From: a virus
Taxonomy: Duplodnaviria > Heunggongvirae > Uroviricota > Caudoviricetes
Direction: 5' to 3' (one strand)
DNA: 22,610 nt
Virus record (IMG/VR): IMGVR_UViG_2526164650_000003
Part shown: in pieces, positions 1 through 22,610 of the stretch
Position numbering within the stretch: the stretch's first letter is position 1
Layout of the letters: every line of letters begins with the position of its first letter
Position numbers and translations under genes: made by a program
The notes under the pieces: model-generated
What the model saw: the letters and a program-made list of their open reading frames with translations, nothing else
Database searches by the model: none
What the model was told of the DNA's origin: nothing

Positions 1-610
1 TGCCGGTCAGCGCAGCATCAATGTCATTTTGGTCCTGTTCTGCTGCGCGGGCATAACCTGCGGCATCCTGTGCGCTCTGTCCGGCTGCGGCTGCATTTGC
101 TCCTGTGCTTGTCACATCTTCCGCAGTGGCCTTTCTGTCCTCAGCTGTGACGGTTGCATCCTGTCGGGCTTTCTCCGCAAAACGTTGTGCATCATCACGG
201 GCCGTTGCGGCTGCCGCCACATCCTGCGCCGTCTGCTGTGCGTTTCCGGCTGCAGCCCCGGCACTCTGCTGCGCCTGCGCCACCATTTCCTCAAAGCGCT
301 TCATCACCTCCGGACGTAAATCACCATCCTTTGGTGCATTCAGAAACGCGTTCAGTGTCCCCGGTGCATCAGTCGGTGCCACATCAATATCCCCGACACG
401 GGTTGGCTGCCAGCCGTTACAGTGAAGCGCAACCTCGTAATACCCCGGCTCAGCCTCAATCACATAAGCACCGTTATTGTCCGTCACGCAAGTGGCAACA
501 ACGTGTGCCACAACGGTCGGACTGGTTCTTCTGGCCCGCAGTTCAATCGCACAATTTACGACAGGTTTACCCGCCCCATCTTTCAGTACACCTGAAATCT
601 TTACTGCCAT
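1..610 (-). CDS. stf: Side tail fiber protein Stf, N-terminal part only (gene runs off the left edge of the window)
   Basis: Minus-strand ATG at 610..608 opens a frame reading MAVKISGVLKDGAGKPV..., the conserved N-terminus of lambda Stf (orf-401), with no stop before position 1. Position directly after lom matches lambda order J-lom-stf. Not in the ORF track because it is edge-truncated. Confidence 0.75.
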   Translation of the reverse strand, partial: MAVKISGVLKDGAGKPVVNCAIELRARRTSPTVVAHVVATCVTDNNGAYVIEAEPGYYEVALHCNGWQPTRVGDIDVAPTDAPGTLNAFLNAPKDGDLRPEVMKRFEEMVAQAQQSAGAAAGNAQQTAQDVAAAATARDDAQRFAEKARQDATVTAEDRKATAEDVTSTGANAAAAGQSAQDAAGYARAAEQDQNDIDAALTG

Positions 611-620
611 ATTCACCCCA

Positions 621-647
621 CAAAAAGCCCGCCTGAACCAGCGGGCT
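621..647 (-). terminator. Candidate intrinsic terminator downstream of lom
   Basis: 7-bp GC-rich inverted repeat agcccgc/gcgggct (626-632 / 641-647) with an 8-nt loop, followed on the minus strand by a U-tract (plus-strand a-run 621-626). Confidence 0.4.
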
Positions 648-673
648 GTCATAACACTGTGTTACCTGGCTAA

Positions 674-1273
674 TCAGAACTTATAACCGACACCCACGAT
701 GAAACCGTCAGTGCGCCAGTCGCCACTGCCGGAACCTTCATAAGCAAGGTCAATGGCCACGGATTCGGTCGGGTTAAACTGCACGCCAGCCCCCCACGCC
801 AGAGACGTGTTGCTGTGGCGGTTGTCATCACTCCCGGTCAGCACATCGTGCGTTTTCCCCTTGTTGTCAGTTACGCGGAGATAATCCCCGGAGAAGGTCG
901 ACACACGGCTGTAAGCCACGCCCGCCATCGCATACGCGCTGAACCATTCATTCACGCGCACAGACAGCCCCGCCATCACGCTGAACCAGCGGTTACGCAC
1001 GGAATCCTCATGCCAGCGGGTATCACTGTAATGCGTTTTTTGCTCATCTTCAGCGTTGGCATAGCTGAATGACGTCACCAGCCCCAGCGTGTCCGTAAAC
1101 TCATAACGGTATTTCACGTTAATCCCGTTCAGATCATCACTGCCGGGAGCGTTCGTCGAGGCATGAAGATACCCCGCGCTCAGCGTGGACTGATGTTCAG
1201 ACGCCCATGCAGGCGCACCGGATACAGCCAGACAGATGGCTGCGGACAAAATGGCAGCATAAAGTTTACGCAT
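674..1273 (-). CDS. lom: Lom outer-membrane protein (Ail/PagC/Lom family), lysogenic-conversion moron
   Basis: 199-aa ORF with a signal peptide ([24 protein letters not shown]) and a C-terminus ...[23 protein letters not shown] that matches lambda Lom as I recall it. Sits immediately downstream of J. Confidence 0.9.
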
Positions 1274-1297
1274 AATTACCTCTCGCTTTTCTGCAAT

Positions 1298-1321
1298 AAA
1301 AAAGGCACCATTTCTGGTGCC
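1298..1321 (-). terminator. Candidate intrinsic terminator between J and lom
   Basis: Inverted repeat ggcacca-tttc-tggtgcc (1304-1321) followed on the minus strand by a U-tract (plus-strand a-run 1298-1303). Confidence 0.4.
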
Positions 1322-1340
1322 CGTATCTGGGTTATAAAAT

Positions 1341-21361: not shown

Positions 21362-21365
21362 CCAC

Positions 21366-21608
21366 ATGTTCGCTTTGATTCAACGCGGGCAGATATACAC
21401 AGACAGAGCCGGATACCCAGTAGAAATTACTCGCAGTACTGAGCACTCAGTGTTCTTTCGGAGGATGGACGGACGTACCGGGCGAGTACGCATCGGTGAA
21501 TTCAGTAGCCTGTTCGAGCATATTGACCACCTGGAATATCACAAGATTCTGGCTGAAACAGAACAAGAAAAGCACCTGAAGAAATTACGCGCAATGCAAA
21601 GGAAGTAA
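21366..21608 (+). CDS. Small phage protein of unknown function (80 aa)
   Basis: MFALIQRGQIYTDRAGYPVEITRSTEHSVFFRRMDGRTGRVRIGEF...; tightly packed in the operon 4 nt after the preceding stop. Confidence 0.5.
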   Translation: MFALIQRGQIYTDRAGYPVEITRSTEHSVFFRRMDGRTGRVRIGEFSSLFEHIDHLEYHKILAETEQEKHLKKLRAMQRK

Positions 21609-21611
21609 AAA

Positions 21612-21758
21612 ATGAATAAAGCGTTTGAGCTATGGGTCCACCAGCGTTACGGCAACCACTACGACCTGACGCGAGATGTTGACGGTTTCTACTGTCGTGA
21701 AATTGTGAAACGAATGTTTGAGGTCTGGTGCCACTGCCGTGGGCTGAGTGTTGTGTGA
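21612..21758 (+). CDS. Small Cys/Trp-containing phage protein of unknown function (48 aa)
   Basis: MNKAFELWVHQRYGNHYDLTRDVDGFYCREIVKRMFEVWCHCRGLSVV; SD aaggaag 8 nt upstream; below the ORF-track length cutoff. Confidence 0.4.
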   Translation: MNKAFELWVHQRYGNHYDLTRDVDGFYCREIVKRMFEVWCHCRGLSVV

Positions 21759-21766
21759 GGTAATGC

Positions 21767-21964
21767 ATGGGCAATGTGATTCAACTGGCTCCCAATGAAT
21801 GGGTTTGTGAAAGCGTTCTAATCGCAATTACCGGGCTCAAACCAGGCACAATTCTTCGGACCCGGAAAGAATGCTGGATGGTTGGAAGAGAGTATATTCA
21901 CGTATCACCAGACGGTAATCCAAAGCCTTCTGAAGTGGTCAACAAAAACTGGCCACCGAGTTAG
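21767..21964 (+). CDS. Excisionase-like (Xis-type) DNA-binding protein, 3' end replaced by IS sequence
   Basis: [50 protein letters not shown]... resembles the lambda Xis pattern (...ETVRRWVRECRIFPPPVKDGREYLFHESA...). From 21931 the reading frame is IS911-like terminal repeat sequence, so the last ~11 codons are IS-derived. Confidence 0.45.
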
Positions 21965-22326
21965 AGTTTTTCCTGTATCGATTTTCCGATTCGTTTGGGG
22001 GTAACCCACCGTTATATTCGTGCGGTCTTAGTGCGCTGTAATATCCAACGATATAGTCCGTTATGGCGTGAGCTGCCTCGCTGAAGCTTACGTAACCCAC
22101 CACCGGCATCCATTCGTTCTTCAGACTCCTGAAGAAGCGTTCCATTGGGCTGTTATCCCAGCAGTTTCCGCGCCGGCTCATACTCTGTCTGATCTGGTAT
22201 CGCCACAATAACTGCCGGAACTGCCTGCTCGTATAATGACTGCCCTGATCGCTGTGGAACATCACCCCGCCGGGCTTACCACGGGTTTCCCATGCCATTT
22301 CCAGCGCTTTCATGGTGAGCCTGCTG
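21931..22326 (-). mobile_element. IS3-family (IS911-like) remnant: right terminal repeat plus 3' part of orfB
   Basis: Terminal sequence TGAAGTGGTCAACAAAAACTGGCCACC at 21931 onward; minus-strand ORF fragment ...[49 protein letters not shown]... is the C-terminal DDE region of an IS3-family OrfB. The 5' part of the element is missing, cut off by the IS66-family end. Confidence 0.7.
21939..22326 (-). pseudogene. IS3-family (IS911-like) transposase OrfB, C-terminal fragment
   Basis: Open frame carrying the DDE-domain C-terminal motifs listed above, with no N-terminal region or orfA. Confidence 0.7.
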
Positions 22327-22610
22327 GTAAGCGCCCCGAGAAGTACGTAGCGTAAGGATTATTTTACAGACGAGAAGTTCCAGGGCAGCAGTTTATGCAC
22401 TTGGTTCGACGGCCAGTCATTGAGCTTCTCGATCACTTCGCGCAACCAGTCCTCCGGCTCCACTTCGTTCTGTTTGCAGGTGACCAGCAGACTGTAGATG
22501 ATCGCCGCACTTTCTCCTCCCTTGTCTGAGCCGAAAAAGAGATAATTTTTTCTTCCAACCGCCACCGATCGTAACGCGTTTTCACCGATGTTGTTGTCTA
22601 TTTCCACCCA
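22327..22610 (-). mobile_element. IS66-family insertion sequence, terminal part (continues beyond the window)
   Basis: Terminal sequence GTAAGCGCCCCGAGAAGTACGTAGCG at 22327 (IS66-family ends typically begin GTAAGCG); adjacent minus-strand ORF is the C-terminus of an IS66-family TnpC transposase. Confidence 0.6.
22359..22610 (-). CDS. IS66-family transposase (TnpC), C-terminal part; ORF continues past the window edge
   Basis: ...IDNNIGENALRSVAVGRKNYLFFGSDKGGESAAIIYSLLVTCKQNEVEPEDWLREVIEKL... is the conserved C-terminal signature of IS66-family TnpC. Confidence 0.7.
   Translation of the reverse strand, partial: WVEIDNNIGENALRSVAVGRKNYLFFGSDKGGESAAIIYSLLVTCKQNEVEPEDWLREVIEKLNDWPSNQVHKLLPWNFSSVK

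Follow-up and report, generated by a model that had tools for sequence, protein, structure and literature searches.

Defective lambdoid prophages, among them Rac, DLP12 and Qin of Escherichia coli K-12 and the Sp elements of O157 Sakai, have lost modules in association with insertion sequences (ISs) while their cargo was kept, and carry near-identical tail modules with gene conversion between them. Massive deletions are described as having left the prophages of Shigella flexneri uniformly cryptic (PMC5596473), chromosomal ipaH islands are present in all isolates (PMC4226921), and in lambdoid prophages effector cargo is found after the tail-fibre genes (PMC3530523). The stretch considered here, IMG/VR virus record IMGVR_UViG_2526164650_000003 (22,610 nucleotides, referred to in full as the window), is the whole of draft contig AFHD01000027.1 (assembly GCA_000213495.2), and both of its ends are assembly breaks within repeats. 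It very probably belongs to a cryptic lambdoid prophage that is fixed in yecE of S. flexneri and has undergone three module losses, each marked by an IS: ISEc20, IS600 and IS911.

An intact relative at the same chromosomal site

Four ipaH-positive E. coli genomes (RMDEC332, VL40, RMDEC364 and VL46) hold all phage segments of the window in the same order within one block of ~42.7 kb. In RMDEC332 the intact relative is 48.6 kb long and occupies the same site in the 5' end of yecE; this locus, L001 (NZ_CM177021.1, about 2822948-2871530), was used as the reference. Its left side runs from aspS, yecD and the first 96 nt of yecE (yecE') through dinI, ipaHd, a DUF4376 gene, stf, lom and J back to FI, and is followed by E, D, the protease, portal, W and large and small terminase genes, then by Rz, R and S, and then by the tRNAs and Q. 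The right side is made up of helicase, loader, ash, a toxin-antitoxin pair, Rha, a LexA-type repressor, the early-left genes, xis, int, yecE and yecN.

Aligned to this locus by blastn, the window from stf to FI (1-13538) corresponds to L001 3501-17026, the tRNA region (14993-15993) to 27213-28213, a stump of the nin region (17194-17337) to 30986-31129, an early-left stump (18600-18872) to 41606-41878, and the early-left genes, ending inside xis (18870-21930), to 43143-46206. The segment with ISEc20 (13539-14992) is absent from L001 and stands where the window lacks 10,181 bp (L001 17027-27207) with the genes for head, packaging and lysis. At IS600 (17336-18602), which lies elsewhere in L001, the window is short of 10,476 bp (L001 31130-41605) with the replication, immunity and early genes, and everything from xis nt 165 onward is missing as well.

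As all blocks are colinear in RMDEC332, the tail module and the block at 18600-21930 are taken to be parts of one lambdoid prophage. A single inverted lambdoid prophage had been proposed in an earlier sequence-only reading, with lambda order from stf to FI, tRNAs, Q and rusA on the minus strand and early-left genes running toward an Xis-like gene on the plus strand. The minus-strand order agrees with Pfam, ARAGORN and Rfam, the plus-strand genes with Pfam and PHROG matches that include an excisionase of family DUF1233, and the unity of the element with the colinear segments of the four E. coli genomes. That reading had also asked whether the two blocks might come from different elements, which is answered by the single prophage of RMDEC332, and whether head, lysis or immunity genes persist elsewhere in the locus; none were found between aspS and argS in complete sister S. 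flexneri genomes.

The FI-to-J genes stand in lambda order with family-specific Pfam matches and Q is present, the late promoter being a consensus match only, while the immunity/replication and head/terminase/lysis modules are lacking. Because the flanking stumps match the relative, the absence of the immunity/replication region represents loss and not a reason to place the element outside the lambdoid group. Colinear with a complete phage and lacking its excision, replication, packaging and lysis modules, the element has the makeup of a cryptic prophage.

The structure is not limited to the contig. Seven complete S. flexneri chromosomes match window 11766-22326 at this locus with 99.65-99.95% identity, and two further complete chromosomes match window 1-14826 with 99.7-99.9% identity; all three junctions are shared with complete, independently assembled S. 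flexneri genomes. The same junctions are present across complete genomes of serotypes 1a, 2a, 2b and 3b, the serotypes being those of the S. flexneri accessions in a published table (PMC9455713). In these sister genomes a 583-aa ipaH gene with LRR_TTSS and NEL domains lies ~2.2 kb beyond the left end of the window.

Anatomy of the three deletions

ISEc20, of the IS110 family, spans 13544..14992 on the plus strand (transposase 13771-14967; Pfam DEDD_Tnp_IS110 and Transposase_20) and is 99.8% identical to the annotated element. Its flanks, CCCGCC and CCCCCGACAG, exactly rebuild L001 27208-27222, just upstream of the holin start codon. The deletion junction (13530..13543) joins the hairpin arm GGGAGC on the FI side, ending at 13538, to CCGCC (13539-13543), which is the native left flank of the ISEc20 target adjoining the holin start. 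In every E. coli relative the FI-side homology ends at this GGGAGC, a point that coincides with the loop boundary of a terminator hairpin. Six distinct ISEc20 copies were compared and all sit in the middle of a poly-C run (CCCCC^CCCCCC), and both the DEDD transposase and this sequence-specific target are those of the IS110 family. As read from the alignments, ISEc20 occupies its native target, and the head/lysis deletion ends 5-6 bp outside the IS and not at its tip.

No copy of ISEc20 at the holin-upstream target with the holin retained was found among 5,426 E. coli genomes, partial matches to such an intermediate proving to be unrelated ISEc20 copies whose flanks are alike merely in being A/T-rich and then poly-C. 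No closer ancestor combining the exact FI allele with a head module was found either, as all 33 contigs that were read have ISEc20 beside FI. A second ISEc20 is seen in the sister genomes, where it splits yecD ~5.6 kb left of the left end of the window and ~19 kb from the window copy.

IS600, of the IS3 family, is 1264 bp long (17338..18601, plus strand), and both neighbouring open reading frames (ORFs) are stumps. Its left flank reads ...CCATAT|TGAGG and its right flank CCTCA|CAACGCC, so that TAT stands against CAA and no target-site duplication is present. IS600 and IS911 both have the rve and HTH_21 domains of the IS3 family and its terminal sequences, TGAGG...CCTCA in the former and TGAAGTGG... 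in the latter. A 3-bp duplication is seen at simple insertions of these elements, namely IS600 in RMDEC332 and IS911 in E. coli FDAARGOS_944, and its absence from the window's IS3-family copies is indicative of rearrangement. The IS600 of RMDEC332 lies 273 bp from the site of the window's IS600 and has a clean CAT duplication, and the window has an empty site there; the two are therefore independent insertions. On the left, IS600 cuts the 3' stump of a nin-region ORF (phrog_2565; 17198..17337, minus strand), which falls within L001 30986-31129 and matches only the C-terminal part of its PHROG. Codon 11 of orfA in the window's IS600 (17432-17434) is TAG and not GAG, a change shared by six of the seven sister S. 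flexneri genomes; strain 670 and the E. coli copies have GAG. The nonsense codon leaves the transposase of this copy dead.

The third junction lies in xis. The excisionase gene (xis'; DUF1233, phrog_539; 21767..21930, plus strand) is truncated after 164 of 237 nt and reads into IS911 to a stop at 21964, and at least 39 megabase-scale contigs encode the resulting 65-aa chimera. The window holds the terminal 396 bp of IS911 (IS3 family; 21931..22326, minus strand), with the 3' end of orfB. In the sister genomes the IS911 is complete, stands in place of the 3' end of xis, int, the attachment (att) site and yecE nt 97-474, and is flanked by CTT and CCC, again with no duplication. By comparison with K-12, attB has an 11-bp core, TTAACTGCGTG, and falls within the 5' end of yecE, with yecD and yecN on either side. 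The dinI-side core is kept in the S. flexneri sisters, and K-12 homology resumes only at yecE nt ~475, which indicates that the int-side att and yecE nt 97-474 were lost.

Between IS911 and the yecE remnant lie 162 bp (sister locus L003 11415-11576) with no match in lambdoid relatives. In 46 E. coli genomes this sequence is the terminus of a different prophage, which abuts a truncated yecE at the same position; NT1F10 is an example, its prophage having a tape measure and a Dam methylase gene. This vestige indicates that the IS911-linked deletion ran through xis, int, att and the piece of yecE into a second, tandem prophage.

In E. coli FDAARGOS_944 a related ipaHe prophage at mlrA/yohO also has IS911 in xis (L035 41497-42746), as an independent simple insertion with a GTA duplication. 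It was rejected as the same event, lying ~20 bp upstream in a different xis allele and att site, and xis appears to be a recurrent IS911 target. In S. flexneri 670 a 2.27-kb group II intron (RVT_1 and GIIM domains) lies inside the IS911 copy of this locus (L008 10652-12922). In the window itself the IS911 is interrupted by an end of ISSfl3 (IS66 family; 22327..22610, minus strand; 99.6% identical to ISSfl3, with Pfam DDE_Tnp_IS66 and IS66_C), which runs to the contig end. Neither E. coli genomes nor PLSDB plasmids nor sister loci have the IS911/ISSfl3 junction, and no other contig on record encodes its truncated product; the nest, private as it is, may be a real insertion or an assembly join.

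Much of what the sequence-only reading had said of the ISs can be kept. The missing modules do form three blocks at ISEc20, IS600 and IS911, with the correction that ISEc20 stands 5-6 bp off its breakpoint, and the lack of a target-site duplication at IS600 is borne out. The loss of int had been assigned to a nest of IS911 and IS66-type elements, of which IS911 does replace int and the ISSfl3 part is peculiar to this contig. The flanks, which it had proposed to inspect for att sites, retain the dinI-side core in the sister genomes, where the int-side att is deleted.

We infer from the junction sequences that the deletions were IS-mediated. The ancestor would have been a phage of ~47-48 kb with lambda gene order and with ipaH (a type-III effector gene) and dinI, its cargo, placed downstream of the tail-fibre genes; three IS-adjacent deletions would have taken about 22 kb from it. 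Head, packaging and lysis genes would have been lost at ISEc20, the likely route being an illegitimate event beside the IS. The replication, immunity and N/early region would have been lost at IS600, and the 3' end of xis, int and the int-side att at IS911, the latter deletion continuing through yecE nt 97-474 into the tandem prophage; for each of these two, either an adjacent deletion or recombination between two direct IS copies may be the mechanism. About half of the phage remains, the window representing about 85% of the remnant. Unable to excise, replicate, package or lyse, the remnant persists as a passive chromosomal island with the tail module, Q and rusA, the tRNAs, the morons and, outside the window, ipaH.

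Genes retained in the remnant

The tail module lies on the minus strand. At the contig end stf' (1..610) is cut to its N-terminal 203 codons, which match stf of L001 (Pfam phage_tail_N 2.7e-49). Window positions 31 and 33, no more than 35 bp from this end, read TTTTGGTCC where all sister genomes have TTTTTGGCC, likely an end-of-contig error. The accessory gene lom, for an Ail/Lom outer-membrane protein (674..1273; Pfam Ail_Lom 6.6e-125, full length), is followed by J, the tail tip attachment protein (1341..4820), which is intact at 1159 aa with all six GpJ domains; the identical J protein is present in 4943 index blocks, among them two prophages in each S. flexneri genome. The tail-tip assembly genes I, K, L and M (4881..7195; Pfam Lambda_tail_I, Prok-JAB and NLPC_P60, Phage_tail_L and Phage_min_tail) are intact and have the same lengths as in L001. 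Beyond H, the genes T, G, V, U, Z, FII and FI (10214..13507), for tail assembly, the tube and head-tail joining, are intact with full-length Pfam matches; FI (13106-13507) is the last tail-side gene before ISEc20, and the block from T to FI is 97% identical to L001.

The tape-measure gene H (7195..10242, minus strand) is split into overlapping ORFs, with the Pfam domains TMP_2, TMP_4 and Tape_meas_lam_C spread over three of them. Relative to the sister genomes it has eight 1-bp indels (8101, 8113, 8117, 8131, 8145, 8155, 9155 and 9950), seven insertions and one deletion with a net change of +6, of which six fall inside 55 bp (8101-8155) at non-homopolymer sites; hardly any substitutions lie around them. 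The window differs from the sister genomes by about 10 substitutions in 14.8 kb, yet all eight indels are confined to H. In the sister genomes H is intact at 1013 aa, and a 276-aa H fragment (7195-8025) is on record solely in the window's contig. Sister assemblies show comparable isolated indels in other tail genes, and three assemblies have none. Judging from this pattern, the breakage of H is probably a sequencing or consensus error, perhaps worsened by a 12-kb repeat. The tail had been described from the sequence as intact apart from H; the other genes bear this out, and the exception falls away in the sister genomes, the indels being private. Tail-gene calls that are sporadically missing from sister genomes were rejected as a sign that decay is under way, since they come from single 1-bp indels, most of which lie in homopolymer runs or in one assembly with much noise. 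The sole tail-region defect common to S. flexneri is outside the window, where a frameshift truncates stf at ~aa 353 of 470 in each of the two resident prophages of the sisters (sister locus L012 14169-15573), a state that can be likened to the frameshifted stf of laboratory lambda.

The repeat is shared with a second resident prophage: window 1-12277 (12.3 kb) recurs with about 99.9% identity in the prophage at the bio locus of S. flexneri. In FDAARGOS_690 the yecE-locus copy has a patch of 21 single-nucleotide polymorphisms (SNPs) in the U gene (window 11836-12033) that equals the allele of its own bio-locus prophage, a direct sign that gene conversion has taken place between the two. Strains differ by about 0.07% at this locus; its youth, with too little time for decay, would explain why the tail genes look intact, and we infer that they have also been homogenised by gene conversion with the second prophage. 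Measured against F-type tailocins, which resemble lambda tails, the locus has a headless tail cluster but lacks holin, endolysin and spanin genes, and apart from Q it has neither a repressor nor an activator.

Further along the minus strand, four tRNA genes (15667..15976; Rfam tRNA 60-71 bits) were identified by ARAGORN as Gly(UCC), Thr(UGU), Arg(UCU) and one with a CAU anticodon; Rfam found these four tRNAs and nothing else over the whole window. The CAU-anticodon tRNA (15901-15976) is called tRNA-Met(CAT) by ARAGORN and tRNA-Ile in the RefSeq annotation of relatives, and is presumably a lysidine-modified reader of AUA. With Arg(UCU), Thr(UGU) and Gly(UCC) it makes up a rare-codon set. A pR'-like sigma-70 promoter (15986..16015, minus strand) just upstream of the array, and terminators at 15408-15389 and 15053-15027 from a terminator scan, are consensus matches only. 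The Q antiterminator gene (16153-16848; Pfam Phage_antiter_Q 9.7e-90) and the RusA resolvase gene (16839-17198; Pfam RusA 1.9e-15), both on the minus strand, form a cassette (15994-17193) with no blastn match in L001. The same cassette stands beside tRNA-Ile in 1190 E. coli records, and by sequence it is best described as a mosaic swap relative to the intact relative, that is, a common interchangeable lambdoid module and not a foreign junction.

Between the tRNAs and the lost holin, the late-leader remnant (14993..15666, minus strand) is 99% identical to L001 27213-27886 and has terminator-like hairpins. A 98-aa ORF (15193-15489, minus strand) and a 71-aa ORF (15407-15622) have no Pfam or PHROG match. 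The former, between the tRNA array and the lost holin, holds the position of the stx genes in Shiga toxin (Stx) phages; its sequence is 99% conserved in RMDEC332, where it is unannotated.

On the plus strand the early-left (pL-side) accessory block (18602..21766), equal to L001 41606-41878 plus 43143-46042, starts with a truncated ORF stump. By Pfam and PHROG matches it encodes a membrane moron (18871-19059), an SPFH protein (19056-19883), an ORF6N anti-repressor (19927-20676), a phrog_3007 protein (20673-21242) and a DUF4222 protein (21366-21608), and it also holds a 48-aa ORF. The tRNA array, lom, these early-left morons and ipaH outside the window may still be acting, and selection for them is possible.

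Competing explanations and known systems

With a draft contig that ends in repeats and has private H indels and a private IS911/ISSfl3 junction, the deletions could be suspected of being false joins at IS copies. This is barely credible, as complete S. flexneri chromosomes at 99.65-99.95% identity have the same three junctions; an assembly artefact is refuted for the deletions and may apply at most to the H indels and the ISSfl3 junction. Highly improbable, too, is a composite locus in which tail module and early-left block came from different elements joined by IS-mediated rearrangement. The unmatched Q-rusA cassette, the lower identity of 18870-21930 (93.6% vs 97-99% elsewhere) and the second-prophage vestige that sister genomes have past IS911 would fit such an origin, but all blocks are colinear in four genomes that share the att site, the sequences flanking each IS align to one and the same relative with the order and orientation expected, and the rusA-Q-tRNA cassette is a common interchangeable module among lambdoid phages. 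At the head/lysis junction, ISEc20 might be a bystander in its preferred poly-C target, a separate illegitimate deletion having ended 5-6 bp away at the hairpin loop. The element's specificity for poly-C runs, the retained native left flank CCCGCC and the left breakpoint at the terminator hairpin loop all speak for this, and IS110-family elements are not, to our knowledge, associated with adjacent deletions. However, a random 10-kb deletion ending no more than 6 bp from an IS is improbable (roughly 10 in 10,000 positions), and the ancestor may have had a second ISEc20 with a C-rich flank between E and FI, where relatives diverge by ~25%; the bystander account is judged unlikely, though it deserves to be kept in mind.

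The account of a decayed prophage with three IS-linked losses has its own difficulties. Intermediates, whether an IS with the adjacent module kept or two flanking IS copies, were not found, and the order and mechanism of the events rest on junction anatomy. The deletion sizes are estimates, the closest intact relative being 93-97% identical with a different Q cassette, and the placement of ipaH, att and yecE is drawn from the sister genomes, the flanks of the window being contig breaks. ISEc20 with its 5-6 bp of native flank does not fit a deletion precise to the IS end, and it argues against simple recombination between IS copies, except in the case of a second copy, since lost, that also had this C-rich flank. 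As for why the remnant persists, it may be a domesticated element, in which selection keeps the tRNA array, ipaH, the morons and perhaps the tail, and in which deletions that locked in the cargo and disarmed lysis were favoured. The fixed structure across serotypes, the promoter-like site directly upstream of the tRNAs and the terminators before ISEc20, the four intact tRNAs (for AUA, AGA, ACA and GGA codons) and the adjoining ipaH of the sister genomes lend themselves to this view; against it, ~10 substitutions in 14.8 kb among strains make intactness expected without selection, stf is already frameshifted, Q lacks its upstream pR/N context, and there are no lysis genes, such that domestication is considered rather doubtful. 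It is very unlikely that the FI-J tail cluster is a maintained functional unit together with Q, the pR'-like promoter, the tRNA array and gene conversion. If it were, the locus could be a tail reservoir and donor for lambdoid phages or yield tailocin-like particles freed by the lysis genes of another prophage, or it could act mainly as a constitutively expressed tRNA/effector island supporting AT-rich virulence genes, and the three IS-linked deletions would have been selected for disarming the phage while locking in the cargo.

Read as a decayed prophage, the locus shows in textbook fashion how prophages are grounded by IS expansion in Shigella, their virulence cargo (ipaH and tRNAs) becoming fixed in the chromosome, and it illustrates that sister genomes are needed before frameshifts and terminal IS nests of a draft contig are taken as biology. 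The exact junctions might be used as lineage markers and as a case study of deletion beside an IS110-family element; the ISEc20-adjacent breakpoint, the recurrent IS911 in xis and the gene conversion between prophages are the remaining curiosities.

The locus is already known, and its decay is of an ordinary, catalogued kind. It recurs in the complete S. flexneri genomes, in which ipaH lies just to the left, and would correspond to one of the ipaH islands of this species; the window stops inside stf and does not include ipaH. The ipaH lambdoid prophages of RMDEC332, VL40, RMDEC364 and VL46 share the 5' yecE site and the dinI, ipaH, DUF4376, stf and lom cargo. The RMDEC332-type prophage has the same tail genes (97%), tRNA array (99%), early-left block and xis, and differs in being complete, in its methylase-WYL-Q cassette and in its one simple IS600 insertion with a CAT duplication. 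With lambda the window shares the order FI-FII-Z-U-V-G-T-H-M-L-K-I-J-lom-stf, Q, and an early-left operon ending in xis, and it has about 91% DNA identity over 12 kb to PhiR47_1, cdtI, mEp460 and Ayreon; unlike the lambda, mEp460 and cdtI phages, it has no head, packaging, lysis, immunity, replication or int genes. The tRNA array downstream of Q is found in the same position in Stx-type phages. In comparison with the defective prophages of K-12 and Sakai, which have other att sites and cargo, the window is set apart by three IS families marking three losses.

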